This document shows positions 7,392-25,600 of a stretch of 64,000 nt of DNA, one piece after another. This DNA comes from Betaproteobacteria bacterium (lineage in GTDB: Bacteria; Pseudomonadota; Gammaproteobacteria; Burkholderiales; Usitatibacteraceae). Every line of letters starts with the position of its first letter. The stretch's first letter is position 1. The DNA is taken from assembly GCA_040006575.1 (NCBI GenBank), contig JBDTWS010000002.1, positions 1,380-65,379 of the forward strand. The letters run 5' to 3'. The position numbers were made by a program, and so were the translations under genes. The notes under the pieces are model-generated. The model was not told the origin of the DNA and ran no database searches. It saw only the letters and a list, made by a program, of their open reading frames with translations.

Positions 7392-7862
7392 ATGCAAATC
7401 ATGCGCCAACGCGGTTTCTCCCTGCTCGAAATGGTCGTGGTGATCGTTATCATCGGCCTTTCGTACACCTTGCTGCCCAAGATGGTTTTCTCGGGCGTTT
7501 CGGGTGCGGACCTGCGTTCAAATGCGCGCGCCGTTGCGAGTGGGTTGAGGATCACACGCGATACCGCGATCAACACACGGCGCGAAGCAGTAATGTCGCT
7601 TGATCTTGAAAACCGCCAGTTCACAGTGCAAAACGACACGACCGTTCACAAGCTGCATGAACTGCTGGATGTAAAGCTCTACACCTCACAAGCTGATCTG
7701 ATCACCGACAAGATGGGCAGCATTCGCTTCTACCCGGATGGGTCCTCGAACGGGGGACGCGTGACCGTGGCCGCTGGCGGGCGCGGTTTTGAAGTGGATG
7801 TTGATTGGCTGACAGGACGCGTCACCATTAAAGATGCTGCACCCGGAGATGGCCGTGGATAG
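7392..7862 (+). CDS. gspH: minor pseudopilin GspH
   Basis: Leader MQIMRQRG|FSLLEMVVVIVIIGL with Glu+5. Size and position after gspG fit GspH. Confidence 0.75.
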   Translation: MQIMRQRGFSLLEMVVVIVIIGLSYTLLPKMVFSGVSGADLRSNARAVASGLRITRDTAINTRREAVMSLDLENRQFTVQNDTTVHKLHELLDVKLYTSQADLITDKMGSIRFYPDGSSNGGRVTVAAGGRGFEVDVDWLTGRVTIKDAAPGDGRG

Positions 7863-7883
7863 GGCGTCTCGGAGGCATTTCGC

Positions 7884-8375
7884 TTGAAGAAGCGCGTAAA
7901 CAGTGCGTCTTGGCATCGCCGCCCAGCACGGGCGGGAATTTCTGCGCGCGTGCGTGGCGCGCACGGATTCTCGTTGCTGGAAGTGCTGGTGGCGTTCACG
8001 CTTTTTTCCGTCGCGCTGGGTGTGCTGATGCAAATATTTTCCCGCGGCGTAAATGGCGCGTCGATCGCAGACCATTACGCGAAGGCAACCATGTACGCGG
8101 AATCCAAACTCGCTGCGGTGGGTCTGGAAGAAGTAATCAAGGAAGGTACAACAAGCGGAAAGTTCGATGACGAAACTTATGCCTGGCAGGTGACGGTCAA
8201 GGCGTACACCGACCCCGCTCCGCGTGACCAGCTGGCGCTGGATTTTGAGAAACAGTATTACGCACAGTTGTACGAGATCGAAGCGAAGGTCACGTTCGCC
8301 ACTGATGACAGGAAAGAACGTGTCGTAAGTTTGTCCACGCTGCAGTTCGGGCCGCGAAGCAGTAATCCATCATGA
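7884..8375 (+). CDS. gspI: minor pseudopilin GspI
   Basis: G|FSLLEVLVAFTLFSV prepilin motif. Assigned by gene order. The start is uncertain because TTG at 7884 gives a long leader. Confidence 0.7.
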   Translation: MKKRVNSASWHRRPARAGISARVRGAHGFSLLEVLVAFTLFSVALGVLMQIFSRGVNGASIADHYAKATMYAESKLAAVGLEEVIKEGTTSGKFDDETYAWQVTVKAYTDPAPRDQLALDFEKQYYAQLYEIEAKVTFATDDRKERVVSLSTLQFGPRSSNPS

Positions 8376-9088
8376 AGAACCTGTTCCGCGTCCGTCGCGA
8401 TCATTGCGTTCAAGGATTTACGCTGCTGGAACTGCTGGTCGGGCTGACGCTGCTGGGCGTCTTGCTGATCCTGATTTATTCCGCACTCAATGTCGGCTTG
8501 CGCGCGTGGGACACGGGAGAGCATCGTGCCGGTGAGGCGAGTCACCAGCGCATCGTGCAGAGTTTTTTGAGGCGCGAGCTGGGACAGGTTTTTCCGGTTC
8601 GCTGGCGCGGAATCGCGGAATCGAAAATCGCCTTTGAGGGCGCAAAAAGTGAAATCAAATTTGTTACTGCATTGAATCTCGGGGCTTCAATCAAGGAGGG
8701 CGGCCTGCAGTGGGGCCATCTGTATGTGGCTGACGATCCCGAGCAAGGTCCCGATGGCAAAAGGCGGCAGTCACTGTTCCTGAAGCGGGAGGTGTTTGAT
8801 CTTCAGGCAAAGGACTGGGGCGGGCTGGATGAAGCAAAACCGACGCGCCTGATCGCCGGTGTGAAGGAAATTGAAATCTCGTATTTTGGTTCGGAAAACG
8901 ACAACACCGATCCGAAGTGGGCAAGCGAATGGGCGTTTCCACTTCGCGTGCCGACGCTTATCAAATTCGTTGTAAAGACCGACACGGGTCGGGAAGTCCC
9001 CGACCTGGTAGTGGCGCTGAAGCTGGGTGAAGAGGCCGGCTGCTATGACAATGCTTTCCAGCGCCAGTGCGCCCCGCGGAGAGCGTGA
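8372..9088 (+). CDS. gspJ: minor pseudopilin GspJ
   Basis: QG|FTLLELLVGLTLLGVL prepilin motif. ATGA overlap with gspI. The 238-aa size fits GspJ. Confidence 0.75.
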   Translation: MKNLFRVRRDHCVQGFTLLELLVGLTLLGVLLILIYSALNVGLRAWDTGEHRAGEASHQRIVQSFLRRELGQVFPVRWRGIAESKIAFEGAKSEIKFVTALNLGASIKEGGLQWGHLYVADDPEQGPDGKRRQSLFLKREVFDLQAKDWGGLDEAKPTRLIAGVKEIEISYFGSENDNTDPKWASEWAFPLRVPTLIKFVVKTDTGREVPDLVVALKLGEEAGCYDNAFQRQCAPRRA

Positions 9089-10095
9089 TGTCGATTTCAC
9101 TGCGCCCACGCCCGCGAATGCTGCACATTGCCAAACGCCAGTCGGGCATCGCATTGATCATTGTGCTGTGGATCATGACGCTGCTGATGTTGATCGCATC
9201 TTCATTCATACAGTCCATGCGCACGGAAATTAATATTGTCGGCAACTCGGTCACGCGGGCGAAGCTGGAAGCGGTGGCCAATGCCGGCGTCCAACGCGCC
9301 ATTCTTGAAATGGTGAAACCGCCGCAAATGACCGACCGCTGGAATGTTTATGGCGTGCCGCAGGAATGGAACTTCCAGGGCCAAACGGTGAAAGTCAGCA
9401 TGCTGGATGAATCGGGCAAGATCGATATCAATGTCGGCAACGAAGGGTTGCTGCGCGGCTTGTTTCGTTCGCAAGGTCTATCTGAAGAGGAGGCGGCCGC
9501 ATTGATGGATGCGATCCTCGACTGGCGCGACCTGGATACAATCAAACGCCTGCATGGCGCCGAGGAAGAGGAATACAAGGCCGCCGGCCTCACGTACAAG
9601 CCGGCGAACGCAGCCTTCCAGTCGATCGAGGAACTGCGCCTGGTCCTGGGAATGACGCCGGCACTTTTTCAGCGCATTGCGCCACTGATAACAATTTATT
9701 CCCGCCAGCCTGGCATCAATTCCCAGATAGCCTCCCGTGAAGTGCTGCGGGCGATTCCAGGCGTTTTGGAAGAGCAGATCGATGAATACATCAAGCAACG
9801 TGAGCTGGCCCGTGCCAGCAAACTTCCTGTTCCCGCGTTCGGGCCTGCAGCGCTGTTACCCAGTTTCGGGAACGGTGTCATGAATGTAAGGGTCGAAGCC
9901 AGCAGCGAAGATGGAACGACATTCGTTCGGGAAGCGGTAGTGCTGCGCTTGCCCTTTCCCAAGCGTTCCTATACCTTCCTGCGCTGGCAGGAAGGCGCTC
10001 CCCTCGATAACTCAATCATCCCCTCTACCGCTATCCCGCCGGCAACGGCGTCCGGGATTGGCAAGGTTGCTGTCAATGACGGCAAGAGCCGGTAA
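9088..10095 (+). CDS. gspK: minor pseudopilin GspK
   Basis: RQSG|IALIIVLWIMTLLML lacks Glu+5, as expected for GspK. Large periplasmic domain of about 335 aa. ATG at 9088 overlaps the gspJ stop (TGATG); an alternative ATG lies at 9121. Confidence 0.8.
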   Translation: MSISLRPRPRMLHIAKRQSGIALIIVLWIMTLLMLIASSFIQSMRTEINIVGNSVTRAKLEAVANAGVQRAILEMVKPPQMTDRWNVYGVPQEWNFQGQTVKVSMLDESGKIDINVGNEGLLRGLFRSQGLSEEEAAALMDAILDWRDLDTIKRLHGAEEEEYKAAGLTYKPANAAFQSIEELRLVLGMTPALFQRIAPLITIYSRQPGINSQIASREVLRAIPGVLEEQIDEYIKQRELARASKLPVPAFGPAALLPSFGNGVMNVRVEASSEDGTTFVREAVVLRLPFPKRSYTFLRWQEGAPLDNSIIPSTAIPPATASGIGKVAVNDGKSR

Positions 10096-10113
10096 TCCCG
10101 CAGCCCATTTCCT

Positions 10114-11526
10114 ATGAACGATTCCATGACAGCAAGCAGTACCGTCGTCCCCGCGCCACGCACCGCACGGCTCAATGAATTCTGGCGCTGGTGGACGGGA
10201 GAATTGCGCGCACTGGTGCCCTCGCGCGTAGTTGGCTGGGTGGTCGGCGAAGTCGCTGTGACCGACGTCGTCGTCGACGATGTGTCGATCAGGCTACTTG
10301 GCGTGGAATCCGGCAAGCCCAGGGTATTTGCCGAGGTGCCGATTGCAGAAATCGCGGCGCATCCACGCTTTCGTGAAATGCGCGCGAAGGGAAATGACCA
10401 CGTCAGGGTAATTCTTTCGAGCGGGCAGGTATTGCTCAAGACCATTACGCTGCCGGCGGCGATTGAAGAGAATCTGCGCGAGGTTATGGGCTTTGAACTG
10501 GACAAGCACACGCCGTTTACGGCAAGCCAAGCCTATTACGACGTGAAATTACTGCGCCGGGACGCCCAACGTGAATCGATCGATGTGATTCTCGCTGCGG
10601 CGGCACGCGCAACGGTTGATCCATTGCTGGTCACGCTTCGCCAGGCAGGTTTGTCGGTGGATGCGATTACCGTGGCCGATATTGACGCTGGCGGTCAATC
10701 AATGGAGTTGTTGCCCGCATCGGAAAAGCCCGCGCGAAAATGGGGTCAGTTGCTAAAGCTCAATCTGGCGTTGCTGGGGTTGGCGGTGGCGCTCGGTTTG
10801 CTGGCCCTGTTGCTGCCAATCTGGCAAAAACGCGAACAAGTCATCGAGCTCAGTCCGCTGGTCGGCAAGGCCAGTGCCGAGTTTGAGATCAACCAGCGTG
10901 TGTTTGACGAGTACACGAAGCTGGCCAACGAATACAACTACATCACGGGCAAGAAAGAAAGCCAACATCCGTCGCTGGCGATCCTTGAAGAACTGACCAG
11001 GATTTCGCCCGATACGACCTTCGTGCAATCGCTGGAAATGAAGAGCAGTCCCAAGACGCGCGAGATTACGCTGACCGGTGAGGCGCAAGCGGCTTCGCGG
11101 GTGATCGAAGTTCTGGAACAATCGCCGATGTTTCAGAACGCTTCGCAGAAATCCCCTACGCGCCGCGGCAGCCTTGGCACCAACGAATGGTTCAACATAG
11201 CAACCGAACTGAAACCCAAGGCTTTGCCGGCCGCTGTCGTACAGGATGGGAAAATCCCGGAAGTCGTTCCTCCTGCGCCCGCTTTAGTAGCGCCGCCGGT
11301 GTCCGTACCCGCGCCCATTCCTGTACAAACGCCAGCGCTTCCCGTCGCACCGCAAACCATGCCCGGAAAAATGGCGCCGGCCAACGCAGCGTCGCCAGTG
11401 GGCGCACTTGACAAGCCCCAGCAACCCGCTCCGCAACCTACAGCCACGGTCACCGTACCTGCGCCCAAGCCAGCACCTGTCGACGTGCCGCCAAAAGCCG
11501 CATCCACGCCGGGGAAACAGCCATGA
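10114..11526 (+). CDS. gspL: T2SS assembly protein, GspL-position, PilM/PilN-fusion-like, with Pro-rich C-terminal tail
   Basis: Occupies the GspL position. Cytoplasmic N-domain, a single TM segment (LKLNLALLGLAVALGLLALLLPIW), a PilN-like periplasmic domain, then a ~100-aa Pro/Ala/Val tail. Confidence 0.65.
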   Translation: MNDSMTASSTVVPAPRTARLNEFWRWWTGELRALVPSRVVGWVVGEVAVTDVVVDDVSIRLLGVESGKPRVFAEVPIAEIAAHPRFREMRAKGNDHVRVILSSGQVLLKTITLPAAIEENLREVMGFELDKHTPFTASQAYYDVKLLRRDAQRESIDVILAAAARATVDPLLVTLRQAGLSVDAITVADIDAGGQSMELLPASEKPARKWGQLLKLNLALLGLAVALGLLALLLPIWQKREQVIELSPLVGKASAEFEINQRVFDEYTKLANEYNYITGKKESQHPSLAILEELTRISPDTTFVQSLEMKSSPKTREITLTGEAQAASRVIEVLEQSPMFQNASQKSPTRRGSLGTNEWFNIATELKPKALPAAVVQDGKIPEVVPPAPALVAPPVSVPAPIPVQTPALPVAPQTMPGKMAPANAASPVGALDKPQQPAPQPTATVTVPAPKPAPVDVPPKAASTPGKQP

Positions 11527-12185
11527 CCAAGACGAGCACCCGGTCGTGGATCCCCAATAACCCGCGCGATCGCCGGATCATGGCGGTGACAATTTTGGCG
11601 CTGGTTGTTGCGCTGATTGTTGCCGCGATCGTCGTCCCCGTCGTGATGCTGAATCGCCACTACGATCAAAACATTGCCAGGATGACCCGGCAATGGAAAA
11701 ACCAATCCGCGTTCAATGAGTTGCGCCCGCAAGTCACGCGCGCACTGGATCAGCTCAAATCCAGGGATGTACGAAAACTCTTTCTGAAGGGCACCACCGT
11801 TGCATTGGGCTCCGCTGAATTGCAGGATCATGTTGCGCAGGTGATCGAAGGAAATGGTGGCCGGCTCATCGCGCGCAACGTGAGTCCCCACAAGGATGAC
11901 GGCCCATATCGCTTGGTCTCAGCGAATTTTGCCTTCAACATCAGCAATGTGAATCTGCGCCGGATGATGCATGCCCTTGAGACGAGGGAACCCTATTTGT
12001 TCAATGACAATCTGATGATCCGCTCACAGATAGCCCCGGGCTATCGGTTGCCTGTCGGTGCTGTCGAACCTGATTTGTATGTGTCGATGGACGTATCAAG
12101 CGTTGCATATGTCGGCTCAGAGTCAGCGCCCGCGACGGCCGGTGTACCGGCGTCAGCAAAGCCGGTAGCAGGTGGAAAATCATGA
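11523..12185 (+). CDS. gspM: T2SS protein GspM (subtype-b-like)
   Basis: ATGA overlap with the upstream gene. N-terminal TM segment (IMAVTILALVVALIVAAIVVPVV) followed by a ~150-aa periplasmic domain. Assigned by position and architecture. Confidence 0.6.
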   Translation: MTKTSTRSWIPNNPRDRRIMAVTILALVVALIVAAIVVPVVMLNRHYDQNIARMTRQWKNQSAFNELRPQVTRALDQLKSRDVRKLFLKGTTVALGSAELQDHVAQVIEGNGGRLIARNVSPHKDDGPYRLVSANFAFNISNVNLRRMMHALETREPYLFNDNLMIRSQIAPGYRLPVGAVEPDLYVSMDVSSVAYVGSESAPATAGVPASAKPVAGGKS

Positions 12186-12970
12186 AGATGACCCCGCGCG
12201 TTTTTTGGCAACGTCACGGCTTGACCGCATTATTGATTTTGATTTCCCTTGGATGCCTAGCTGCTCTCGGACTTGAGACGGGATGGGGGCGGTCGTTGCG
12301 AACAACCTTGCCCGTTGCCAACAATTCATCGCGTGCAGGAGAAATTGTCCCGACATTGCCGCCGTTTTCATTGCAACCGCTGGAAGTCGCCTTCAAGGAA
12401 ACGGGTGAACGCCCACTGTTTACGCCGACACGCCGTCCCCAGGCGCTGGCCGCAGCGACCGTTCCCACCATGAAAAAAGGCCAATTCAAATTGAGCGGTA
12501 CGTCGGTCAGCGGTGAACTCACCGTGGCATTCCTCGTCGAACTTTCGTCGGGCAAGACCGTGCGCGTAACGAAGGGCAAGGAAATAAATGGCATTACGCT
12601 CGATACCGTCGAAGGTAATCGCGTAGTCCTGAAGCAGGGCGATGAGACCGAGGAACTGGTGCTGCGTACCGCCGCATCTCCTCCAGTAAGAACACCTCCA
12701 CCTGCCCCGCCTGGTCCCGTTCCGGCATTTTCACCTGTGCCGGGACAACCGGGCATGCAACGGCCGCCCCCCGTTGCCAGCGTAGTTCCCGTGCCACCAG
12801 GTGTGATGCCGCCTGCACCGACAGTGCCAAATCCGGGCTCGTCCCAGTTGCCAGGATTTGTCATGCCTTCCGCTGCGGCAGGTCAAGCACCAGGTGCGGC
12901 GCCGACTGTGGATCCGGCAAACGCCGCGCAGCAACGACGCAGGAGAATCCAGGCTCAACCGCAACAGTGA
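12182..12970 (+). CDS. GspC/XpsN-like secretin-interacting protein (HR/PilP-like domain, no PDZ, Pro-rich tail)
   Basis: N-terminal TM segment. A beta-rich segment FKLSGTSVSGELTVAFLVELSSGKTVRVTKGKEINGITLDTVEGNRVVLKQGDETEELVL resembles the GspC HR / PilP fold pattern. It lies between gspM and gspD, as xpsN does in Xanthomonas. Confidence 0.5.
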   Translation: MKMTPRVFWQRHGLTALLILISLGCLAALGLETGWGRSLRTTLPVANNSSRAGEIVPTLPPFSLQPLEVAFKETGERPLFTPTRRPQALAAATVPTMKKGQFKLSGTSVSGELTVAFLVELSSGKTVRVTKGKEINGITLDTVEGNRVVLKQGDETEELVLRTAASPPVRTPPPAPPGPVPAFSPVPGQPGMQRPPPVASVVPVPPGVMPPAPTVPNPGSSQLPGFVMPSAAAGQAPGAAPTVDPANAAQQRRRRIQAQPQQ

Positions 12971-13086
12971 TCCCGATAGTCGATGACTGATTGCATGAAG
13001 TGAAAGACAGAATCGCGGCCGCGTTTTAGGTTGGCAGAAGTCCACTTTATGAAATGAATGCAGTGAAACTTTTTTGAATTGAAAAC

Positions 13087-15282
13087 ATGATGCCTATCCA
13101 GACCAAACTAATTTCCGCCATGCTAGTGACGGTGGCCGCGCTCAGTGCGTGCTCAACTTTGCCAGGCGGGGGGGAACAACAGCCGCTTCCCGCACCGGGA
13201 ACCGGGACGACTGCGGCAGGACGCATCCTAGCGGGACCTGTGCCGCCATTCCCGCAGCAGTCCCAGGTCGTGCAGCCGAAAGATGCACCCACCCCAAAAA
13301 CAGGTGATGCTTTTGTTGTTCAGGGCTCTGGCAATTTCGTCAAGACGACTCCCACCGCGCCAGTACTTCCATCGGGTCCGGAGGAATTCAGCCTGAATTT
13401 TGAAGCGACCGATATTCGCGCCATCGTCCAATCGATCATGGGCGATTATTTGCGCGAAGCATTCACTATTCATCCCCTAACTACCGGAACCGGCACCATC
13501 CGGTTGTCGAAGCCGGTCTCACGAAAAGACCTTATTCCAATACTTGAAATGATGCTTCGCCAGAACGGCCAGATCATGGTGCGGGAAGAAGGGCTCTATA
13601 AAATCATGCCGGCGACGTTGGGAACGCGCGGCTCAGTAACGCCACAGGTCGGTACAACGGCGGCGCCGTTGCCGGCGGGATTTTCAGTGCAAATCGTACA
13701 GCTCAAATTTGTTGGCGCGTTGGACATGCAACGAATCCTCGCGCCGTATGTAACTGATCCGGCAGCGTCGGTGCAGATCGATCCAATAAGAAACCTGGTT
13801 ATCGTTTCCGGCACGCAGCGCGAGCTTAGGCATTTGTTCGACATCATTGATTTGTTCGATGTTGACTTCCTGTCAGGTTATTCGGTTGGGCTCTTCCAGA
13901 TGTCCACGGATGTGAAAGCGCTTAGTGCCGACCTGGACAAGATTTTTGGAACCGCCGCGCAAAGTCCGCTTGCCGGAATTGTCCGCATTATTCCGATTGA
14001 GCGCATGAATGGACTGTTGGTTGTGACCACGCAACCTAAATACCTGGAAGAGGCGAAGAAGTGGATTGAACGCCTTGACCGCGCCGGGGGAGTCTCCGGG
14101 GGGATGCGGCTGAATGTCTACGCTGTCCAGCATGGGAAGGCAGAGAAGTTGGCACAGTTGCTGAGTGAAATTTATGGCAAGCAGCAGTCTTCTACCGGGC
14201 CGACGTTGGCGCCGGGTCAGCGTCCGGCGCAGATCGGTACGACCCCGGGCACACCGTTGCCCGGCCAGAACGCCGTATCGCCGGCGCAGTCCGCTATACA
14301 GGCCCTGGTGGCGTTTGCAGGCAGCGGCGGCGCGGTTTCAAAGGACGTCCGCATCATTGCGGACAATGACAATAATGCCCTCTTGATACTGGCATCGCCG
14401 TCCGACTACGAGACGATACAAAATGCACTGCGCCAGTTGGACGTACCGCGACGCCAGGTTTCTGTTGAGGTACTTGTTGCTGAAGTTGTGTTGGATGATT
14501 CGCTGAAATTCGGTATCGAATGGTTCGTCAATGCGAGGAACAACACGGTGGGCGCGATGCGCAGCAGCATAAACGCGTTGCCTACGTTGCCCGGCCTGGC
14601 TACAACGGGAGGTGTCGCTGTTACAGATCCACGGGCACTCATCGCGCCGTCGTCCGGTTTGCAACTGATCAATCTAGGTCCCGGTGGTGACATTCGTGCC
14701 GTGCTGCAAGCGCTTGGCACGGACGGCCGCTCGAAAGTAATTTCCACGCCCAGGGTAATGGTGCTCGATAACGAAAAGGCGACGATCAATGTGGGCGACC
14801 AGATATCGGTCGACACGGGCTCATCTACAGGAACCGGCACTGGCGGAAACGTCGTCACAACGCGTCAATACCTTAGTACCGGGATTATCCTCACCGTGAC
14901 ACCTCGAATCAACGCAGGTGGCCGCGTGACACTGGATGTGAATCAGGAAGTCAGCAGCCCGATCGGCGATGGCACGAATCCAAACATTGCTACCCGCAAA
15001 GCGCAGACTGTCGTAACTGTCAGCTCGGGTGAGACTATGGTTTTGGCTGGGCTAATAAGGGATGTCAACAATACCGTTTCGTCCGGCTTGCCGTTGCTAT
15101 CCAAAATTCCTATCGTCGGCGCATTGTTCGGTTCACAAAGCTTGATCAAGCAGCGCACGGAGCTTGTCTTGCTGATCACACCAACAGTGGTAACCAGCCC
15201 TGAGGACTCGCGCGCGGTGACCGAAGAAATCCGGAAGAAGCTACCTTCACTCCAAGAGTTCCTGCCAAAACCCACAAAGTGA
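13087..15282 (+). CDS. gspD: T2SS outer-membrane secretin GspD, predicted lipoprotein (liposecretin)
   Basis: Lipobox LSAC (Cys codon at 13150), a Pro-rich linker, N-domains, and a secretin core (TPRINAGGRVTLDVNQEVSS, SGLPLLSKIPIVGALFGS). Confidence 0.9.
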   Translation: MMPIQTKLISAMLVTVAALSACSTLPGGGEQQPLPAPGTGTTAAGRILAGPVPPFPQQSQVVQPKDAPTPKTGDAFVVQGSGNFVKTTPTAPVLPSGPEEFSLNFEATDIRAIVQSIMGDYLREAFTIHPLTTGTGTIRLSKPVSRKDLIPILEMMLRQNGQIMVREEGLYKIMPATLGTRGSVTPQVGTTAAPLPAGFSVQIVQLKFVGALDMQRILAPYVTDPAASVQIDPIRNLVIVSGTQRELRHLFDIIDLFDVDFLSGYSVGLFQMSTDVKALSADLDKIFGTAAQSPLAGIVRIIPIERMNGLLVVTTQPKYLEEAKKWIERLDRAGGVSGGMRLNVYAVQHGKAEKLAQLLSEIYGKQQSSTGPTLAPGQRPAQIGTTPGTPLPGQNAVSPAQSAIQALVAFAGSGGAVSKDVRIIADNDNNALLILASPSDYETIQNALRQLDVPRRQVSVEVLVAEVVLDDSLKFGIEWFVNARNNTVGAMRSSINALPTLPGLATTGGVAVTDPRALIAPSSGLQLINLGPGGDIRAVLQALGTDGRSKVISTPRVMVLDNEKATINVGDQISVDTGSSTGTGTGGNVVTTRQYLSTGIILTVTPRINAGGRVTLDVNQEVSSPIGDGTNPNIATRKAQTVVTVSSGETMVLAGLIRDVNNTVSSGLPLLSKIPIVGALFGSQSLIKQRTELVLLITPTVVTSPEDSRAVTEEIRKKLPSLQEFLPKPTK

Positions 15283-15446
15283 TACCGTCGGTATCAATAA
15301 TGGATAACAAATGTGGTGAAAACGACACATACGCCGACTATCAAGTTTAAATTATTGACGCAAGAATAGGAATTCTCTACGCTTTGGATGTAAACTTTCA
15401 ACTTAATGCTTTACATTAACTGCTTCTTGGAAGAATTGGATTTGTT

Positions 15447-15857
15447 GTGCAATTTGCTTTTGTAATTCGGACGTTGGTCTTTGTGATTCTGGTTGTCACA
15501 GCGGGGTGCGCTAACCAGGCGCCTTCAAGTTCAGCTGCAGCTCAGACGCCGGAACAACTCGTTGCTTCGCGGGCTCAAGCGCGCTGGGACGCACTAAGGG
15601 CCGCGCAGTTTGACAAGGCATACGCATTCGTTTCACCCACTACCCGTCAAACGCTTACGATGGAAATTTATCGCGGGAGACTGGGTGGCGCCAGCTGGCT
15701 GGGGGCGCAAGTGGTGAAAGCGGTTTGCGAGCCCGAAATTTGTGATGTGTCTATCAAGTTGGAGTATTACGTTTTGCCAAATTTGAAAGACACACAGGTA
15801 GTTGAGGAAAAATGGATTTTGGACGGCGGAAACTGGTGGTTCGTCTACCGGGGCTAG
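15447..15857 (+). CDS. small lipoprotein of unknown function
   Basis: GTG start. Signal peptide with lipobox VTAG|C (Cys codon at 15507). The ~115-aa mature domain contains two further Cys. Confidence 0.6.
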   Translation: MQFAFVIRTLVFVILVVTAGCANQAPSSSAAAQTPEQLVASRAQARWDALRAAQFDKAYAFVSPTTRQTLTMEIYRGRLGGASWLGAQVVKAVCEPEICDVSIKLEYYVLPNLKDTQVVEEKWILDGGNWWFVYRG

Positions 15858-15931
15858 TCCTACAGGTGTTGGTAACAGTACGAAAATGCAGAAAGTAATA
15901 CTAAAGTAGCAATAAAAAGACACCGAGCAAA

Positions 15932-15962
15932 TTGATTGAAAAACGGTGTTGGCTGGTATAAA
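15932..15962 (+). promoter_or_regulatory. candidate sigma70 promoter for the 547-aa secreted protein gene
   Basis: TTGATT (15932-15937) and an extended -10 TGgTATAAA (15954-15962). The 19-nt spacing is non-ideal. The region is an AT-rich intergenic stretch. Visual match only. Confidence 0.25.
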
Positions 15963-16022
15963 CTTGATTTGTTGTAGCTTCTAAAGTGATCACTTTATTC
16001 TCTAAAAGGAGTAACCTAAAAA

Positions 16023-17666
16023 ATGAATACGTTTAAAATGAAGTCAATGCACGTTGCAGTGCTCGCGGGTTTGGCGGCTATCGGAGCTGCTGGAACTGCT
16101 GAAGCCGTGCACATCAATCCTGATGGCACCGGCCAGGTTTTGGTATACCCGTACTACACGGCGCGTGCTGGTCAAGCAACTTTGATCACCATCATCAACG
16201 TCCAGAACAACACCAAGATCGTTAAAGTCCGCTTCCTGGAAGGCAAGAACAGCCGCGAAGTACTTGACTTTAACTTGTTCCTCTCCCCAAGCGACGTTTG
16301 GACCGGTGCTATCGTTGGAACGACCAACGGTGCCCGTGTTGTCACCAATGACAACTCCTGCGTAACGCCTAGCGACTTGTTCGTTGAAACCCGTACCGAC
16401 GGCGCAAACCCGTTGAACGATTTCAAGAACTACACGTACACCGGCGCGTTTGTTGATTCCGCATCGTTCGCTTCGCTGGATCGTACCCGTGAAGGCTATT
16501 TCGAAGTTATCGAAATGGGCGTAGTGGATGACGACACAATCGACGGCAATCCTATCGTTGGTGCTACTGCAGTCGCTGTGACCGGATTCATCCGTCACAA
16601 CACCGCTGGCGTTCCTGCCAACTGTCGCGCTCTGGACAGCTTCGACAACTTCGCTGGCAACCCTGCAACGACGAAATTCCCGAACCAAGGGACGTCGCCT
16701 GTAAGCGTGCCGCCCGCTGGTACCCTGACACAGCCGCCGCGCGGTGGTTTGACTGGTCGCGCCAGCATTATCAGCTCGACAACTGGTTCAAACTACACGT
16801 ACAGCCCGACCGCATTTGATGCATGGTCTGTCACGCAACAGTATTCGGAATCCGGTAACCTGGCTCCGTCGATCACCGCAGTTGATTCGGGCAATGCAGC
16901 TCTGGTTGGCCCGACCAGCAACGTGTTCACCTCCGCTGGTATCGTTACAACCGTCTGGCCAATTAGCGCGGCTGGTTCGCGTGACGCTATGTCGGCAACG
17001 ATGATGCGCAACAGCGTGATCAACGAGTACATCCTTGACGCAGCTACTGCATCGCAAACCGACTGGGTTGTTACCTTCCCAACGAAGCGTGCCTATGTGT
17101 CAGTTGGTGGCGGAGCAGCTATTGCACCGTTCGCACAAAACTTCCCGAACTCGACAGCCGGCTCTTGCGATCCTTATGGCTTCTCGGTGCTGAATCGTGA
17201 AGAAGGCGTACCTGGTTCGATCACCCTGATCCCGAATCCTTCACCGCTGCCCCCGGGCGTAACGGTGGCTGGTGCAACCCTGTGTTGGGAAGCTAACGTT
17301 GTACCGTTCGCTGGTACAAGCTTGCTGTCCTCGCAGAACACCAACCCACTGATCACGTCGCTGCAACAGTTCGTGAACGGTGCAACCACCACACCGGCCA
17401 GCCTGACAACGCCGACCCTGCGCGCAACACAAGGCCCGAACGGCTTCATGTCCATGTTCTTCAACAGCGGTACGCAAGTTTTGGCCACCACCGGTGCCAC
17501 GACAACCCGTACACCGTTGGGTCAAGCTCCAGTTGCAGTTGTCAACGCTGTGTATAACGGTCTGCCAGTTATCGGCACGATGATGCATAACTACCAAAAC
17601 ACCGGTGTTGTGTCACGCTTCGGCGGTACGGTTGATCACAAGTTCACACGTAGCATCACACCGTAA
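16023..17666 (+). CDS. secreted protein of unknown family, probably very highly expressed (candidate surface-array / T2SS cargo protein)
   Basis: Sec signal peptide MNTFKMKSMHVAVLAGLAAIGAAGTAEA|VH. Consensus SD AAGGAG at 16006-16011. Codon usage and GC differ from neighbouring genes. A strong terminator follows directly. Confidence 0.85.
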   Translation: MNTFKMKSMHVAVLAGLAAIGAAGTAEAVHINPDGTGQVLVYPYYTARAGQATLITIINVQNNTKIVKVRFLEGKNSREVLDFNLFLSPSDVWTGAIVGTTNGARVVTNDNSCVTPSDLFVETRTDGANPLNDFKNYTYTGAFVDSASFASLDRTREGYFEVIEMGVVDDDTIDGNPIVGATAVAVTGFIRHNTAGVPANCRALDSFDNFAGNPATTKFPNQGTSPVSVPPAGTLTQPPRGGLTGRASIISSTTGSNYTYSPTAFDAWSVTQQYSESGNLAPSITAVDSGNAALVGPTSNVFTSAGIVTTVWPISAAGSRDAMSATMMRNSVINEYILDAATASQTDWVVTFPTKRAYVSVGGGAAIAPFAQNFPNSTAGSCDPYGFSVLNREEGVPGSITLIPNPSPLPPGVTVAGATLCWEANVVPFAGTSLLSSQNTNPLITSLQQFVNGATTTPASLTTPTLRATQGPNGFMSMFFNSGTQVLATTGATTTRTPLGQAPVAVVNAVYNGLPVIGTMMHNYQNTGVVSRFGGTVDHKFTRSITP

Positions 17667-17694
17667 TCGATTCAAATTGCCACACGCAACAAAC

Positions 17695-17723
17695 AAAAAG
17701 GGGTGCAGTTGCACCCCTTTTTG
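17695..17723 (+). terminator. rho-independent terminator
   Basis: aaaaaGGGGTGCAgtTGCACCCCtttttg: GC-rich 8-bp stem followed by a T-tract, 30 nt after the stop codon. Confidence 0.8.
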
Positions 17724-17864
17724 TCGTTTGAAGATGCAATCTGTATGCAAGAGTTTACATTCTTGGGTGGCCTCGCCTGCTAGCATCGGTTGCACTAATA
17801 AGAAAAAATATCTTCACTCTGCCGGGACCATTACGTGATTTATGTTGGACTTAAGAGGAACAAA

Positions 17865-19526
17865 ATGAATATTCAAAATTTAAAGATAGTGCTGGCATCA
17901 GCGCTACTCTCAATCTGTACTTTTAGCAGCGTGCAAGCGCAAACGGCCGTATCCATAAATGGCACAGTGTGCGCCGGCGCCACGATTGTTTTCGGTGCGG
18001 GTGGAATCAATGTGAACGCAGCCGCGAATTGCGTCGGCACGACGGGACAAGTTCCATCGATCAACAACAGCACGCCAGCGAACGCCGACCAAGGGGCCTT
18101 CTATAGCCATTCCTTCTCGGCTAACGGATCTACGCCACTTTCCTGGGCCGTTACAAGTGGCGCTCTACCTGCCGGAATGGGAATCAACGCAACAACGGGG
18201 GTCGTAAGCGGGACACCGACGACAATCCAGACATACTCATTTTCTGTAACAGCATCCAACACCTTCGGTACCAGTGCGCCGCTCTCGACGTCCATCAATG
18301 TTGTCGCCCCAAGTGGCCCGCCCGTATTTGGAAATTCTCCACCTACAACTGCCAGCATCGGCACAGCGTATAGTCATCAGTACACGGCAACCGGCGCCGC
18401 TCCCATTGCGTACTCCATAGTCTCTGGAGTTCCTCCATCTGGAATAACGTTGAGCCCCACAGGTCTGCTGGCGGGAGCGCCACTTGCAGGTGCGGTCACT
18501 TCAGCGTTTACAGTGCAAGCGTCGAATAGTGTTTCCACAACGACGCAAGCCGTCAACATCGCAATCATTGCTTTGGTGGGACCGACGATTACCAGCTTTG
18601 CACCGCCCGCGGGAACTGTGAATGCCGCCTACACGTACACATTTGCAGCGAGTGGTTCTGCACCAATTACGTGGGACAAGGCCACTGGCACATTGCCCCC
18701 TGGCTTGACGATCTCGGCAGCTGGAGTACTTAGCGGGACGCCCACGACAGCAGGTACTTACACCTTCACAGCAAGGGCCACAAATTCGGTAACAAATGCG
18801 GTGTCTGCGAACATTAGCATTACAATTTCCCCACCAATTAGCAGCGGTGGGTTCGGCTCAGCCGACATTAACGGCAACCCGATCCCAGCGCCAGTGTCAC
18901 GCGTAGCCAAAGCGATTCTGGCGCCTCACGCAGGACCTAACGGCGGTGGCGGACAAGGCGGGCTTGATGCCAATACAATCAATGCTTGGTCTGTCGATCC
19001 AACGGTATGCTCCAACGCGACACCCGGCATCAGCACACTGTGGTATCACAATGTTAGCCTGCTTGACTACGGCAGCCAATCCGCAATCGAATACTTTGAC
19101 TTCCAACCCAATCAGGCGATTACCTACGCATTTATGTCGCCACAACCCACGACAACCCAGGAAGCCGCAAACGGGCAGGTCGGACGTCTCTTTATCACGC
19201 AAGGTCCTAGCGGTACACCTGCATCTTCGTTTGTATCTGTGTCAACCTCTCCATGCGATTTTGATGTCACAAAGATCGCATCCGGAAACAAATGCTACGC
19301 AACCGGGTCAAACGAGAATGGCTTTACATTCCAGGTTACCGGCGGTGTTGGCGTTGGCACGGTGTGCAAAATGGCGCCGAACACCAAGTACTATTTGAAT
19401 ATTCGCTTCCAGGATGCGCGTCCCGCACCAACAGGAACACCAACGCTAGATGCATGTACGACGCAACTGTCGACGCGGCCGGGTTCAAGTACCTGCGGAG
19501 TATTGCTGCAAATCCAAACTTACTAA
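17865..19526 (+). CDS. secreted protein with three He_PIG (putative Ig) repeats and an unknown Cys-containing C-terminal domain
   Basis: ATG at 17865 preceded by SD AAGAGGA. Signal peptide MNIQNLKIVLASALLSICTFSSVQA|Q. The repeats carry the LPxGxxxxxxTGxxSGTPT signature. Confidence 0.8.
   Translation: MNIQNLKIVLASALLSICTFSSVQAQTAVSINGTVCAGATIVFGAGGINVNAAANCVGTTGQVPSINNSTPANADQGAFYSHSFSANGSTPLSWAVTSGALPAGMGINATTGVVSGTPTTIQTYSFSVTASNTFGTSAPLSTSINVVAPSGPPVFGNSPPTTASIGTAYSHQYTATGAAPIAYSIVSGVPPSGITLSPTGLLAGAPLAGAVTSAFTVQASNSVSTTTQAVNIAIIALVGPTITSFAPPAGTVNAAYTYTFAASGSAPITWDKATGTLPPGLTISAAGVLSGTPTTAGTYTFTARATNSVTNAVSANISITISPPISSGGFGSADINGNPIPAPVSRVAKAILAPHAGPNGGGGQGGLDANTINAWSVDPTVCSNATPGISTLWYHNVSLLDYGSQSAIEYFDFQPNQAITYAFMSPQPTTTQEAANGQVGRLFITQGPSGTPASSFVSVSTSPCDFDVTKIASGNKCYATGSNENGFTFQVTGGVGVGTVCKMAPNTKYYLNIRFQDARPAPTGTPTLDACTTQLSTRPGSSTCGVLLQIQTY
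18075..18836 (+). repeat. three tandem ~85-aa He_PIG-type Ig-like repeats (protein level)
   Basis: The repeat cores are YSHSFSANGSTPLSWAVTSGALPAGMGINATTGVVSGTPTT, YSHQYTATGAAPIAYSIVSGVPPSGITLSPTGLLAGAPL and YTYTFAASGSAPITWDKATGTLPPGLTISAAGVLSGTPTT. Confidence 0.75.
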
Positions 19527-19595: not shown

Positions 19596-20537
19596 ATGAA
19601 ACTCGCAAAAAAAATTCTGTTCCTCGCATTTACCACATTGCTGCCAATTGCCGCATATTCACAGACCCCCCTTCCCAGGGACAAGGTGCTCGCATCAAAC
19701 CCGCGCGCCACAGTGACATACGCTGATTTTGAAGCGGAGATGGCTCGCATTCCGCAAAGGGATCAATACGAATTCATGATGGACAAGGATCGCATCGCGA
19801 CCCTGGTCGACAATATTCTGATCAACAAGACACTGGCAATTGAGGCTCGCGAAAACAAGCTCGAAAACAATGTGCAGGCCCAGGCTGAAATTAGCAATCA
19901 CACTGACAAGGTGCTGGCTAAATATCGCGGCCTGCAAATCCAGAACTCCGCTCCAAAGATCGATTACCTGCCACGCGCCCGCGAAATATATCTCGCTAAC
20001 CCGGAGCGATTCACGTCTGCGCCGCTATATGACGTTTGGCATGTCCTGGTCAATTTCACCGGACGGACCAAGGAGCAGGCAAAAGTTCGGGCTGATGAAC
20101 TGCGCGCCAGACTCGTCGCTGGAGAGTCTCCCGAAAAAATAGCAGCCGAGAACTCGGACGATGGCTTCGCAAAAACCGACAAGGGCAATCTCGGACCTTC
20201 CGACCTGAAGACCTATGACGTGAGATTTGCCGCGGCCGTCCGTAAGCTGAAACCAGGTGAGTTTTCCCCGGTTTTTGAATCGGAGTTTGGGTTTCATGTC
20301 GCCAAGCTCCGCGCTTACAAAGCAGCGGTAAAGCTCCCGTTTGAAACGGTAAAAGCAGCGCTTATTAATGAGGCAGAGGACCAGTATCTCAACTCCGTTT
20401 GGGAAGCGCACCTGCGAAAGATCCGGAACGATCCCAAGCTTTTTGTAGACGTCGAAGCGCTTGAACAGTTGCGCCCGAAGGTCGCGCCCGTACCATCCGC
20501 CCTGCCGTTGCCCGGCGCGTCGCCAAAATCGAAGTGA
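19596..20537 (+). CDS. periplasmic parvulin-type peptidyl-prolyl cis-trans isomerase (SurA/PpiD/EpsD-like)
   Basis: Signal peptide MKLAKKILFLAFTTLLPIAAYS. PpiC/rotamase domain (VWHVLVNF...GNLGPSDL...FESEFGFHVAKL). Confidence 0.85.
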   Translation: MKLAKKILFLAFTTLLPIAAYSQTPLPRDKVLASNPRATVTYADFEAEMARIPQRDQYEFMMDKDRIATLVDNILINKTLAIEARENKLENNVQAQAEISNHTDKVLAKYRGLQIQNSAPKIDYLPRAREIYLANPERFTSAPLYDVWHVLVNFTGRTKEQAKVRADELRARLVAGESPEKIAAENSDDGFAKTDKGNLGPSDLKTYDVRFAAAVRKLKPGEFSPVFESEFGFHVAKLRAYKAAVKLPFETVKAALINEAEDQYLNSVWEAHLRKIRNDPKLFVDVEALEQLRPKVAPVPSALPLPGASPKSK

Positions 20538-21470: not shown

Positions 21471-22691
21471 TTGTCAACCTCAACCACAGACAAACTTGTC
21501 CGGATAGTCGGCATCGGCAAGGACTATCCCATCATCCGTACCGGTTCCGGCCGGCTGCAAACGATATTTGAGCTGCTCAGCGGTCGCGCAGTCCATGAGT
21601 ACTACCGCGCGCTAAACGACGTCTCACTCACGATTGTGCGAGGAGAGTCGTGGGGCATCATCGGCGAAAACGGAGCGGGGAAATCGACGCTCATGAAAAT
21701 CATCGCGGGCGTCGTCAAGCCATCGCGAGGCACCGTCGAAGTGCGCGGTCGGATCAGCGCCTTGCTAGAACTGGGAACCGGCTTCCACCCTGAATATACC
21801 GGGCGCGACAATATATTCCTTGCCTCAGCCCTGATGGGTTGGAGCCGGGCAGAAACCAGCGCTCGCATTGAAGAAATTCTCGAGTTCGCCGATATCGGCA
21901 CGCACGTGGACCAGCCTGTGAAAACCTATTCCTCCGGGATGGTCGTGCGACTCGGATTTGCGGTCGCCACCGCGCTTACGCCGGAGCTGCTTGTTACCGA
22001 CGAAGTCCTCGCAGTGGGCGACGAATCGTTCCAGAAAAAATGCCTTCGATGGATGGAAAATTTCCGTGCGCGCGGCGGCACGCTGCTGCTGTGCTCACAC
22101 AGCATGTATCACATCCAGTCGCTTTGCCAGAACGCCATCTGGATCCATGAAGGTCGCGTTCACATGCAGGGCGAGTCTTTCGCCGTCACACAGGCATATC
22201 TCGCGTACCACGAAGCAAAGAATCGCCGAGAAGCTACTCCCGTCGCCAGCGAGCTCGCCCAAGGCTCACCCTATCCCATGCTGGAATCGGTCTGGGTGGA
22301 AGATGCCAACGTGGCGGAACGCAACATTTTTGAAATGGGTGAAAACATTTCACTGTGTGGAATTTTCACCAACCCGGATGACCAGGCCACAGTCATCATG
22401 ACTGGAATCACCCGAATGGATGGCACGCCCGTGTTCGGTACGTTTTCCAACGATGCCGGGTTTGCCGCCAATCGACTGTCGGCCGGCCGCTTTGGTTTCC
22501 GTTTAACCCTCGATGCGCAGACCCTGCTGCCGGGTGTGTACCAGCTTCGCGCGCACACGCTGGATGAACATGGTCTCCGTCTCTTCGATACGCGGGAAGT
22601 CCAGATCACGGTGAGTGGCAAGACTCGCGATCATGGCCTCGTTCGACTTTCACATCAATGGTGCCCAGGGCACGAACGCAAATCCGCATGA
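21471..22691 (+). CDS. wzt: polysaccharide export ABC ATPase with C-terminal glycan-binding-type domain
   Basis: Walker A GENGAGKSTL, signature YSSGM, Walker B LLVTDEVLAVGD. An extra ~150-aa beta-rich C-terminal domain (nt ~22233-22691) resembles Wzt_C. TTG start. Confidence 0.9.
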   Translation: MSTSTTDKLVRIVGIGKDYPIIRTGSGRLQTIFELLSGRAVHEYYRALNDVSLTIVRGESWGIIGENGAGKSTLMKIIAGVVKPSRGTVEVRGRISALLELGTGFHPEYTGRDNIFLASALMGWSRAETSARIEEILEFADIGTHVDQPVKTYSSGMVVRLGFAVATALTPELLVTDEVLAVGDESFQKKCLRWMENFRARGGTLLLCSHSMYHIQSLCQNAIWIHEGRVHMQGESFAVTQAYLAYHEAKNRREATPVASELAQGSPYPMLESVWVEDANVAERNIFEMGENISLCGIFTNPDDQATVIMTGITRMDGTPVFGTFSNDAGFAANRLSAGRFGFRLTLDAQTLLPGVYQLRAHTLDEHGLRLFDTREVQITVSGKTRDHGLVRLSHQWCPGHERKSA

Positions 22692-25600
22692 GCAGCAACC
22701 CGCTGACATTCGAACAAAAGCAACTCGCCAATGGCGCACTGGCACACCAGAATGCCGGACGCTACGCCGATGCAGCCCAGGCGTACGCGGCGCTGCTATC
22801 CCAGGTGCCACACCTGTGGCCAGCCTGTTACAACCTCGGGCTCGTATACCAGCATCTCGGCCGGCTACCCGAAGCAGCCGAAATGTACGCCCGTGCCGTA
22901 CAACTGAATCCCAATCTGGCCGAAGGCTACAACAACCTGGGAAACGTCCTCAAGTCGCTCAAGAACACGGATGCAGCCATCGAGGCCTATCGCCAGGCAC
23001 TCGCCCTTAATGCCGGGCTGTCGGAGGCCGCATATAACCTCGCGACAATGTTGCAGGCCGGCGGAGAACACCAGCAAGCCATCGACTCACTGCGACAGGC
23101 GACCGCCGTCAATCCCGCGCACGGAAATGCGTGGGATGCGCTATACCGGGGCCTCCTGGCCGGCGGGCGCACAGACGATGCGGTACTGGCATTCCTCGAA
23201 TGGGAAAAGTCGGCGGAACTGTCGCCGGAAATGGTCGTGGCGGGCCTGGCGCTATGCCGTCCGATGGGGGACACGGAACGGGAGACAAAATACGTCGAAC
23301 TCGCCCTGGCGTGGCCGTTTGCTGAATTCACGCCGGACCAGTACGCGCCGATCGTCGGCATGATCCAATACTTCGACGTCACGCGGGAATCCATCCTGCT
23401 GTGCTATCGCCGTTTCGACAGTGCCGTTAATGAACAGCATGTCCCGGTCGTGCCGTTGCTTCCGCGCCGTAGCGCGGATACTCGCTTGCGAGTGGGCTAC
23501 GTCTCAGGTGATTTCCGCCAGCATGTGATGGGACGCATGATGCTGGATGTCATCGCGCGACATGATCGCTCGCGTTTCGGCGTGCTTCTCATTTCAACTT
23601 GCGCACCGGCGCAGCACGATGCCACAACGACGCAGTTTCGCTCGATGGTCGACGGTTTTGCCGACATCAGCCACCTTGATGATTTTTCGGCCGCCAAAAT
23701 CATTGCCGAAGCAGACATCGACGTCCTGGTGGACCTGGGAGGTCAAACGAACAGCGCCCGCCCTGGCATCTACGCATACCGCCCCGCGCGATCCATCGTT
23801 ACGCACCTCGGCTATCACGGTTGCCTGGGAATGAGCTCGGTCGATTACAAATTTACCGACCGCATCGCCGATTTGCCCGATGCGGCAATTTTCCAGATCG
23901 AAAAACCCTACGCCCTTCAGTCCTGCATTTTTCCGTTTGTGCGTGTTCCACCATTGCGCCAGGCGCCCGAACTGGTGCCGGACAAAGACCTTGATGGAAA
24001 ATTTGTTTTTGCGGCGTTCCTGAATGTATTGAAACTCTCGCCGCGCTGCCTGCGCATGTGGCGGCGCGTACTGGATGCCGTGCCTGAAGCAATGCTCCTT
24101 TTTTCGCCGCTGGATGCGGCCGAGAAAAATTCAATTGCACGCGTTACCGACAGTGCCGGCATTGATGCAAACAGGATCGCCGTTCTTGAGCCAGTACGGG
24201 GCGATGCAGCACTGCGCTCACGCTATCGTATCGCCAACGCGGTGATGGATACATCGCCCTACGCTGGTGGCGACACCACACTGGCTGCGCTGGACATGGG
24301 CGTGCCGGTCGTTACGTTGGCCGGACAGCGGCAGAGCGAAAGGGTCGGCGCCAGCATTCTCGGCCACCTGAATTTGCAGGAACTGGTTGCCGCGTCCGAA
24401 GACGATTTCGTCGCACTCGCCGTGAAACTTGCACGCGACACGCAGTTCATGGAAGCGTGCCGGAAAAAAATCGCACAGGAATTCGAAACCGCACTAGCAA
24501 GGGCGGACGATCATACGCGCGCACTTGAGGCCGCCTTCATCGACATCGCGTCGCGTAGCCCGGTAACCGCATCGATGTCACTCACAGCACGACAGTTTTT
24601 CACCACGCTTCACGACGCCATGCGCCGCCAGGAAAAAGCGTCCGGCGATACTGAAAAACGTGCAATCGCGGCCGTATTTGCTGCGTTACGCGTCGAGCAA
24701 CCCGACTATCCGCCTTTGCTGCGAGCACAGGGGCAGCTCGCGCAAGACATGAGGGATCTTGCGCTGGCTTCCGACTGCCTTGGCACGCTGCTCAAGTATT
24801 TGCCGGGAGATGTCGACACACGTCTCACGCTGGCCGGATTCCTGATCGACCGGGGAAACGCAAAAGATGCACTGGACATCCTCGAGGATGCATCCACCGT
24901 GGGCAGCAATGTTCGTAGCCTGCTGCTGCAGACACGCGCATACAGCCAGTTGCGGCAATGGGAGAGTGCACTCAAATGCAGTGAACCCGCAATTGCCCTG
25001 GAACCTGCAAATACCCAGGCACTGTTCTGGCACGGCACCGTTCTCTCGCACGTTGGCGAAGTCAATGCCGCACTCACTTACCTGAACCAGGCGCTCATTC
25101 TTGCGCCATCTCATACCGACGTGGCCTCTGCGGCTTACAACGCAGGTGTCCTGCTAAGCGAATCAGGAAACCACGTCGATGCAGAAAAAGTATTCCGTCG
25201 TGCGATGGCCGCCGACCCATCGCCGCCTGTACAGCTGCGACTGCTGCAAACCCTCAACATGCAAAAGCGCCATGACGATTGGCTCGTTGAAGCGCAGCGG
25301 TTTGTCGCGGCATTTCCAGGCCTGGAATACGCGACGCTGCTGGAAAGCCGGATTGCCCGGCGCCAGGGCAACCTGAAACGCGAGGCGGAACTTCTCTATC
25401 CGCTGGCCGAGCAGGTAGCGCAGATGAAAGATGATGTGACCGCATTCGAGCTGGCTGCTGAATTATCCGGTCTCCTGCCGTTTCACGATGTTTCACCCCG
25501 CTTGTTGGACCGGTTGCAGGACAGATTTGCCAGTGCGTCAAAAGCGCTGCACCCAGCGCGCGCCGATGTAGCGAGGGCGAACACCGTCCCGGAACGCGAG

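Follow-up and report, generated by a model that had tools for sequence, protein, structure and literature searches.

The 64,000-nt stretch of DNA analysed here (the window) lies on contig JBDTWS010000002.1 of assembly GCA_040006575.1, from a Betaproteobacteria bacterium of the Usitatibacteraceae, and carries on its plus strand, at positions 16023-17666, a gene for a 547-residue protein. We find that this gene very probably encodes a surface-layer (S-layer) protein of the NpdA family; at the level of sequence, the protein is an unannotated member of a family that is already published. A first-pass annotation had proposed an S-layer or major exoprotein, and prime cargo of the type II secretion system (T2SS) whose genes precede it. 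The first proposal is supported by homology to NpdA, gene context and codon usage. For the second, the gene adjacency holds and is that of published npdA genes. The combined reading as S-layer protein and T2SS cargo is thus supported, while secretion by this particular T2SS and formation of a lattice in this organism are steps that we infer. Our own evidence is of three kinds, namely homology, gene order and signals in the sequence that point to high expression; the formation of an S-layer, oligomers stable in sodium dodecyl sulfate (SDS) and assembly dependent on lipopolysaccharide (LPS) were established by others on homologous proteins.

Homology to NpdA

NpdA (nanopod protein A) was discovered in Delftia sp. 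Cs1-4 as the protein of its S-layer and nanopods; there, disruption of npdA abolishes the S-layer, the protein gives SDS-stable oligomers, and LPS is required for its assembly (PMC3110197). In Paracidovorax citrulli, knock-out of the gene removes the S-layer, and proteomics and cryo-electron microscopy (cryo-EM) also confirmed the role of NpdA; the protein has a 25-residue signal peptide, a mature mass of 52,394 Da (52.4 kDa) and no conserved domains (Gajbhiye et al. 2023, PMC10765051). An S-layer was visible in 15 of 16 further npdA-bearing cultures, and orthologs were reported from 62 beta- and 49 gammaproteobacterial species (111 in all), including Usitatibacter palustris, Nitrotoga, Nitrincola alkalilacustris, Neptunomonas, Halioglobus, Lysobacter and Comamonas odontotermitis; gsp genes, about 12 in number, are clustered directly 5' of npdA (PMC10765051).

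Homology of the target to these proteins was tested against reference sequences taken from the supplement of PMC10765051. BLASTP aligned the target with NpdA of P. citrulli AAC00-1 (WP_011797163) over residues 35-356 at 27% identity and an E value of 1e-24, the reference having been read from the PDF text of the supplement, where small transcription errors are possible. Alignment of the family profile with the same protein by hhalign gave a probability of 100% and an E value of 6.5e-49 over 435 columns, running end to end from profile position 7 to 490 of 512 and from NpdA residue 1 to 531 of 534. The profile also aligned with NpdA of Congregibacter litoralis (probability 99.8%, E 1.5e-28), an npdA-bearing culture whose S-layer is visible by cryo-EM (PMC10765051). 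The U. palustris ortholog (WP_171164597) matched over its full length by BLASTP, with 36% identity and an E value of 9e-75. The target and NpdA have in common four cysteines and the motifs PYYT/PYF, KVRF, LDF..SP.DVW, REGY.E, TDW..(S/T).PT(K/R)R, (N/D)REE and GLP(V/I).G; the four stretches singled out in the first-pass annotation (VLVYPYYT, GYFEVIEMG, TDWVVTFPTKR and GLPVIGTMM) are all present.

That annotation had recognised no family, which is correct for Pfam and NCBIfam, where the target had no match, but not for the literature, where the NpdA family is described. Scanned against the same two libraries, distant members and proven NpdA were likewise assigned no family, and no NCBIfam model matched P. 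citrulli NpdA or a protein named 'surface layer protein NpdA'. Neither the single sequence nor the profile matched any sequence in PDB. Nor did Pfam, NCBIfam or PDB return a known enzyme or adhesin family, the kind of match that the first-pass annotation had named as counting against it. The protein database holds at least 3980 homologs; among the matches listed, those named by their source are called 'hypothetical protein' and none has a functional name. The match at 100% identity is a hypothetical protein of a Betaproteobacteria metagenome-assembled genome (MAG), and the other close relatives listed, 63-88% identical, come only from MAGs.

The N-terminus, MNTFKMKSMHVAVLAGLAAIGAAGTAEA|VH, shows on inspection the n/h/c layout of a Sec signal peptide, ending at AEA|VH as proposed at first reading and encoded by codons 1-28 (16023-16106). 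The mature protein is computed at 519 residues and 54.2 kDa with a pI of 5.14. It is rich in T (12.7%), A (9.8%), V (9.6%), G (9.2%), S (8.3%) and N (7.3%) and poor in K (1.3%) and H (0.8%), with four Cys, in agreement with the initial estimate of its composition. Although the aligned homologs share only about 50% identity overall, their signal peptide, MNTFKKKSLHAAVLAGLGALGAAGTANA (alignment columns 56-83), is strongly conserved, which is uncommon for Sec signal peptides.

A confident AlphaFold model built from 37 homologs describes a compact, mostly beta body (predicted local distance difference test score 80.9, predicted template-modelling score 0.86). Foldseek searches of this model against PDB and BFVD found no match at E <= 1e-3. 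The best matches were small galectin-like beta-sandwiches with an E value of 5e-3 and a query-normalised template-modelling score (TM-score) of 0.13; being weak and covering only a fraction of the model, they were rejected as homology. The model thus suggests that NpdA has a fold without a solved relative. Of the follow-up searches that the first-pass annotation had recommended, profile alignment gave the homology to NpdA, and Pfam, NCBIfam, PDB and Foldseek gave nothing.

A conserved gene order

The position of the gene directly after the T2SS, noted at first reading, is that of most relatives: in 67 of the 85 related loci compared, the homolog is immediately preceded by gspD. The small lipoprotein gene, the gene for a peptidyl-prolyl isomerase (PPIase), Wzm and Wzt are in place in most of these 85 loci, down to 32-38% identity to the target, and the recurring order is rmlBADC, gspE-M/D, small lipoprotein, npdA, PPIase, Wzm/Wzt, glycosyltransferases. 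The same arrangement was recovered on a 373-kb plasmid of Comamonas odontotermitis, where a tblastn match is annotated 'cell surface protein'. The genes there run rfbBDAC, gspE-M, a hypothetical, gspD, a 122-residue hypothetical, the cell surface protein and the PPIase, followed by an ABC permease, an ABC ATPase, methyltransferases and glycosyltransferases, an order equal to that of the window.

Within the window, all on the plus strand, the cluster is headed by rmlB, rmlA, rmlC and rmlD for dTDP-L-rhamnose synthesis (162-3614; Pfam GDP_Man_Dehyd/Epimerase, NTP_transferase, dTDP_sugar_isom, RmlD_sub_bind). The dedicated T2SS occupies 3871-15282 (Pfam T2SSE, T2SSF, GspH, N_methyl, T2SSK_1st, PilN/PilM_2, T2SSM_b, Secretin/Secretin_N/GspD_N0) and comprises gspE (3871-5646), gspF (5661-6914), gspG (6945-7379, found by open reading frame (ORF) search), gspH (7392-7862), two pseudopilins, gspI and gspJ (7884-9088), gspK (9067-10095), a gspL-like gene with PilM/PilN matches (10114-11526), gspM (11523-12185), an unassigned 262-residue gene (12182-12970) and the secretin gene gspD (13087-15282). 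Between gspD and the target, an ORF encodes a small lipoprotein of 136 residues (15447-15857; lipobox VTAG|C) with no significant Pfam match. Its homolog fills the same slot in most related loci, the 122-residue hypothetical in Comamonas, and by its position it could be a pilotin for the secretin or an anchor for the S-layer.

Downstream of the target lie a secreted protein with Ig-like He_PIG repeats (17835-19526; Pfam He_PIG 4.6e-26) and an exported parvulin-type PPIase (19596-20537; Pfam Rotamase families), possibly devoted to folding the S-layer protein in the periplasm. They are followed by the O-polysaccharide ABC exporter, made up of the ABC-2 permease Wzm (from 20461, Pfam ABC2_membrane, with a true start probably later than that of the listed ORF) and the ATPase Wzt (21471-22691; Pfam ABC_tran, Wzt_C), and by two large TPR-GT41 glycosyltransferases (22658-28916; Pfam Glyco_transf_41 and TPR) that are syntenic in many loci and may act on O-polysaccharide or on protein. 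The slot between npdA and the PPIase is variable, with He_PIG in close relatives only, a TIG protein in L005 (11785-13596) and nothing in Comamonas. The PPIase just 3' of npdA, followed by Wzm/Wzt, is conserved from Comamonadaceae (18607-19506 in the Comamonas locus L206) to Gammaproteobacteria; the NpdA papers cited here describe only the upstream gsp genes and not this downstream linkage (PMC3110197, PMC10765051).

Farther along, the window carries more glycosyltransferases, an FkbM methyltransferase, an MsbA-like transporter and a heptosyltransferase, and from its gene content we read it as an envelope-glycan locus. Other genes observed there encode a protein of the Wzy_C/O-antigen-ligase family (37343-38695), for which WaaL and a protein O-oligosaccharyltransferase are both possible, a 1204-residue tricorn-type protease (39515-43129), a third very large TPR and GT41 (OGT-like) glycosyltransferase (51228-54227), and a DegT aminotransferase with a WbqC-like protein (54262-56186).

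The gene order bears on the best of the alternatives, namely that the T2SS releases the target into the medium as a soluble enzyme or carbohydrate-binding protein and no lattice is formed from it. Most known T2SS substrates are enzymes, the homolog alignment contains many invariant charged residues (D110, R154, E157, E161, R246, D347, R392 and E393), and the sole Foldseek matches are the weak galectin-like sandwiches described above. Yet the protein is homologous over its full length to proven S-layer proteins and is encoded in an identical gene order, no enzyme or lectin family was matched in Pfam, NCBIfam or PDB, and both its composition and its codon bias are in keeping with a structural protein of very high abundance. 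We therefore consider a soluble exoprotein improbable and retain the assignment to the NpdA S-layer proteins.

Spread of the family, paralogs and fusions

A profile search of 1.84 billion representatives of clusters formed at 50% identity matched at least 4066 clusters at E <= 1e-3, 1719 of them at E <= 1e-30, and a scan of one genome per species found at least 558 encoded relatives. Betaproteobacterial carriers include Usitatibacteraceae, Casimicrobiaceae, Nitrotoga, Gallionella and Sulfuricellaceae, and gammaproteobacterial carriers include Lysobacterales, Xanthomonadales, Nitrincola, Neptunomonas and Halioglobus. The genome scan recovered Nitrotoga fabula, Nitrincola alkalilacustris, Neptunomonas, Halioglobus and Lysobacter, all of which stand in the tables of PMC10765051. 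The survey of homolog distribution and neighbourhood that had been recommended thus yielded a widespread family, linked to a T2SS in most of the 85 related loci.

About 10 of the 85 loci are paralogs without a T2SS, often in tandem. Extra copies away from any T2SS and without the conserved leader were observed in L004 (8383-11524), L020, L034 and L077, and contig JBFULN010000007.1 carries two family members, P0030 and P0100, the latter in tandem with another paralog and with no T2SS nearby. Among P0126, P0130-P0140, P0149, P0160 and P0211 are internal tandem duplications of about 930-975 residues with two NpdA-like halves, and other members of that set are fused to DUF285/BspA-type leucine-rich repeats or to C-terminal extensions, reaching up to 1647 residues. 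Hypothetical proteins on small plasmids of Nitratiruptor (Campylobacterota) match only the N-terminal 85-145 residues, at 31-40% identity, so that this N-terminal module may not be confined to Beta- and Gammaproteobacteria.

This diversity raises the possibility that the target is a paralog with another surface role, such as a sheath, an adhesin or a component of a second layer, while a different protein builds the main lattice. The family does contain paralogs, tandem duplications and fusions, a secreted Ig-like protein is encoded next to npdA, and Simplicispira has two different S-layers (PMC10765051). Against this, the copy in the window is linked to the T2SS, occupies the conserved slot, which is also that of the proven genes, and shares the conserved promoter and leader, and no second family copy was found within the window. 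We accordingly regard such a role as very unlikely and continue to read the target as the probable lattice protein.

Expression signals and codon usage

Several features of the gene point to strong expression, and those seen at first reading were located. The Shine-Dalgarno sequence AAGGAG is at 16006-16011, 11 nt before the ATG, and its GGAG is invariant across the aligned leaders; the AT-rich upstream region, 15858-16022 (165 nt), has 33.9% GC. A consensus scan placed a promoter-like site, TTGAAA and TAAACT separated by 17 nt, at 15936-15964, for which an extended -10 element, TGGTATAAA, at 15954-15962 is an alternative reading. This promoter block is near-invariant in seven relatives whose proteins are 49-83% identical to the target. 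The predicted strong intrinsic terminator is a 14-bp hairpin with a T-run at 17693-17724 (GC core 17700-17717), thirty-odd nt past the stop codon, with a folding free energy of -28 kcal/mol and a z score of -5.4; none of 200 shuffles folds equally well. A consensus terminator scan reported no sites and missed this strong hairpin, and an Rfam scan of 15200-18000 returned solely a sub-threshold small-RNA match, located on the terminator.

Codon choice is unlike that of neighbouring genes, as had been noticed in the initial reading, which put CGT at about half of the Arg codons and saw no CGG. The count is 11 CGT among 19 Arg codons (58%, against 14% in the other window genes), with CGG, CGA, AGA and AGG all absent from these 19. 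GCT makes up 42% of Ala codons (8% in the other window genes), GGT 47% of Gly codons (19%) and GTT 46% of Val codons (16%); AAC reaches 82%, TTC 85% and ATC 88%, and the effective number of codons is 41.8. The contrast in GC had been overstated: rather than about 52% in the target and 65% in the GT41 genes, the values are 55.5% and 59.5-60.1%, with 57.6% for the window. Since this contrast is small, the signal is carried by codon choice and not by base composition.

The adjacent T2SS genes have ordinary codon usage, and they were used as the reference in a comparison of 63 homologous loci from different genomes, each target being set against the T2SS genes of its own locus. The target exceeded its T2SS neighbours in its share of CGT in 51 of the 63 loci, of GCT in 61, of GGT in 61 and of GTT in 57. 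Because this shift to U-ending four-fold codons recurs independent of lineage, it argues for translational selection. Preferences of the CGT, GCT, GGT and GTT type are the classical translationally optimal codons of Proteobacteria; the ribosomal genes of this genome lie outside the window. Codon counts therefore favour high expression over foreign origin as the source of the bias, and the codon signature of a highly expressed gene first claimed for the target is supported by its repetition across loci. That the unusual codons instead mark a recently acquired foreign gene has very little probability: the target does differ sharply in codon choice from its neighbours, Comamonas carries the cluster on a plasmid, and Nitrotoga NpdA clusters with gammaproteobacterial sequences in the published tree, so that the cluster does move between lineages, but a horizontal-transfer account of the codon bias was rejected on the GC of the target, which is near that of the window, on the recurrence of the preference for the classical optimal codons across the 63 loci, and on the ordinary codons of T2SS genes that would be expected to arrive together with it.

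The leader palindrome

Between the promoter-like site and the Shine-Dalgarno sequence lies a perfect 16-bp palindrome, TAAAGTGATCACTTTA (15982-15997), present in one copy in the window where 0.07 are expected by chance. The seven relatives with the near-invariant promoter block also share the palindrome AAAGTGATCACTTT and the Shine-Dalgarno sequence. In 49 related loci, some of them encoding proteins only 34-40% identical, the core AGTGATCACT recurs 28-45 nt ahead of the start codon, and the outer positions vary symmetrically, from TAAA..TTTA to GAAA..TTTC, CAA..TTG or AAAA..TTTT. In the alignment of relatives the leader is conserved more strongly than the protein. Comparison of related-locus leaders showed the palindrome to be absent from T2SS-less paralogs, Nitrotoga, gammaproteobacterial loci and Comamonas.

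Folding of the leader RNA does not exceed that of shuffles (z 0.39). An RNA hairpin is therefore disfavoured, and a DNA operator is the likelier reading because the leader RNA is not unusually stable. A literature search on the palindrome returned unrelated primer sequences only, and we propose it as a candidate operator with no known binding factor. The npdA leaders of Lysobacterales and Xanthomonadales (L045, L068, L073, L078, L083 and L084) contain a different conserved motif, AAGCCCTGTG...TTAGGAGTGTTGTGATG, which suggests a separate lineage-specific control element.

A broader model, which we put forward tentatively and with more doubt than confidence, is that rml, a private T2SS, the lipoprotein, npdA, the PPIase and Wzm/Wzt form a laterally mobile, co-inherited envelope module, and that in a large betaproteobacterial clade npdA is controlled through this conserved operator and its regulator.

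Comparison with known S-layer systems

The target resembles NpdA of Delftia acidovorans Cs1-4 and P. citrulli AAC00-1 in its full-length homology, Sec signal peptide, four conserved Cys, mature mass of about 52-54 kDa and lack of Pfam domains, and the loci share rml, the gsp cluster, a small gene, npdA, the PPIase and Wzm/Wzt. There are also differences. Ahead of the first conserved strand, the N-terminal extension is longer in the Comamonadaceae proteins, whose signal peptide is different too (MKKNVLALSIAAMIGG...); their leaders are without the GTGATCAC palindrome (no match in L206); and in the target locus an extra He_PIG gene separates npdA from the PPIase. The U. palustris ortholog is closer, with a near-identical signal peptide, MNTFKRKALTSAVLAGLGAAGTAQA, and the same family-level lineage as judged by the source names of the closest database matches, although its sequence is different at the species level. 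What marks the NpdA family, namely homology, a Sec signal peptide, a mature mass within about 52-61 kDa, no other domain and a gsp cluster upstream, was found in the target throughout.

The closest functional analogue is the A-layer system of Aeromonas, whose likeness to the target is organisational only, by way of gene order. VapA/AhsA of A. salmonicida and A. hydrophila is a Sec-dependent S-layer protein of about 50 kDa, encoded by the last gene of a private Sps T2SS cluster that has O-antigen genes (rml, Wzm/Wzt) around it; LPS tethers the A-layer (PMC4483657). In Aeromonas, however, the T2SS-vapA block lies between wzm and wzt, whereas the T2SS-npdA block of the window is upstream of both, and no PPIase is listed in the Aeromonas cluster. 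A search of metagenome contigs with the vapA forward primer gave 120 chance matches, none of them with the reverse primer.

RsaA of Caulobacter and Slr4 of Pseudoalteromonas tunicata are likewise Gram-negative S-layer proteins encoded beside secretion genes, and RsaA is anchored to O-antigen LPS. RsaA is exported by a type I system, in contrast to the Sec signal peptide and adjoining T2SS of the target, and Slr4 has a predicted RsaA-like beta-helix, in contrast to the compact beta-rich model without a beta-helix match obtained here. Nor does the target show the marks used for the RsaA/Slr4 type, namely the lack of an N-terminal signal peptide and RTX or beta-helix repeats: it has a signal peptide, and no RTX or other Pfam repeats were found in it. 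Slr4 was also considered as the identity of marine family members and rejected on account of its predicted RsaA-like beta-helix.

A proposed pathway to the cell surface

We propose that a strong promoter and a terminator of its own would give the gene a high output of precursor, which would cross the inner membrane through Sec and be cut after AEA. It would then fold in the periplasm, where two disulfides would probably form from its four Cys and the co-encoded parvulin PPIase would help; that these Cys are invariant and the exported PPIase is conserved is in keeping with such a step. The secretin of the dedicated T2SS, whose genes immediately precede npdA, would probably carry the protein across the outer membrane, on which it would then assemble into an LPS-dependent paracrystalline coat. 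For such a coat, the flanking rml and Wzm/Wzt O-polysaccharide genes and the high-expression signals provide indirect support. Its anchor may be a rhamnose-containing O-polysaccharide, whose synthesis and export would fall to the rml, Wzm/Wzt and glycosyltransferase genes on either side; LPS of Delftia Cs1-4 is 49% rhamnose (PMC4572682), which agrees with a cluster headed by rml genes. By this route the uncultured betaproteobacterium itself would presumably make the layer. An 'Ig family protein' is found among the nanopod proteins of Delftia (PMC3110197); it is not known to be related to the Ig-like protein of the window.

Several considerations weigh against an S-layer protein exported in this way. 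The organism is represented by a MAG in which the protein is deposited as a hypothetical protein, and it shares only 27% identity with the Comamonadaceae proteins on which experiments were done. The cultures examined by cryo-EM in the papers cited here include none from the Usitatibacteraceae/Nitrotoga-like clade, one npdA-bearing culture, P. valerianellae, had no clear S-layer (PMC10765051), and the T2SS dependence of NpdA is in every species an inference, stated as such by its authors, rather than a genetic result (PMC10765051). The existence of T2SS-less paralogs (L004, L020 and L077) means that not every family member need form a lattice, and, as the fold has no solved relative, the predicted structure gives no independent support.

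Implications

These findings do not overturn current knowledge, and what they add to published work is modest: a wider spread, the downstream linkage to the PPIase and Wzm/Wzt, a fold with no solved structural relative, and the leader palindrome, which offers a concrete handle on the regulation of so abundant a protein. Neither Pfam nor NCBIfam has a model of this family, and thousands of 'hypothetical proteins' can now be named as NpdA-family S-layer proteins, a spread much wider than the 111 published species. The genes for export (the private T2SS), folding (the PPIase) and anchoring (the O-polysaccharide) travel together, and the results suggest that S-layers are present on many uncultured soil and freshwater Beta- and Gammaproteobacteria, including the Usitatibacteraceae, Casimicrobiaceae and Nitrotoga groups.

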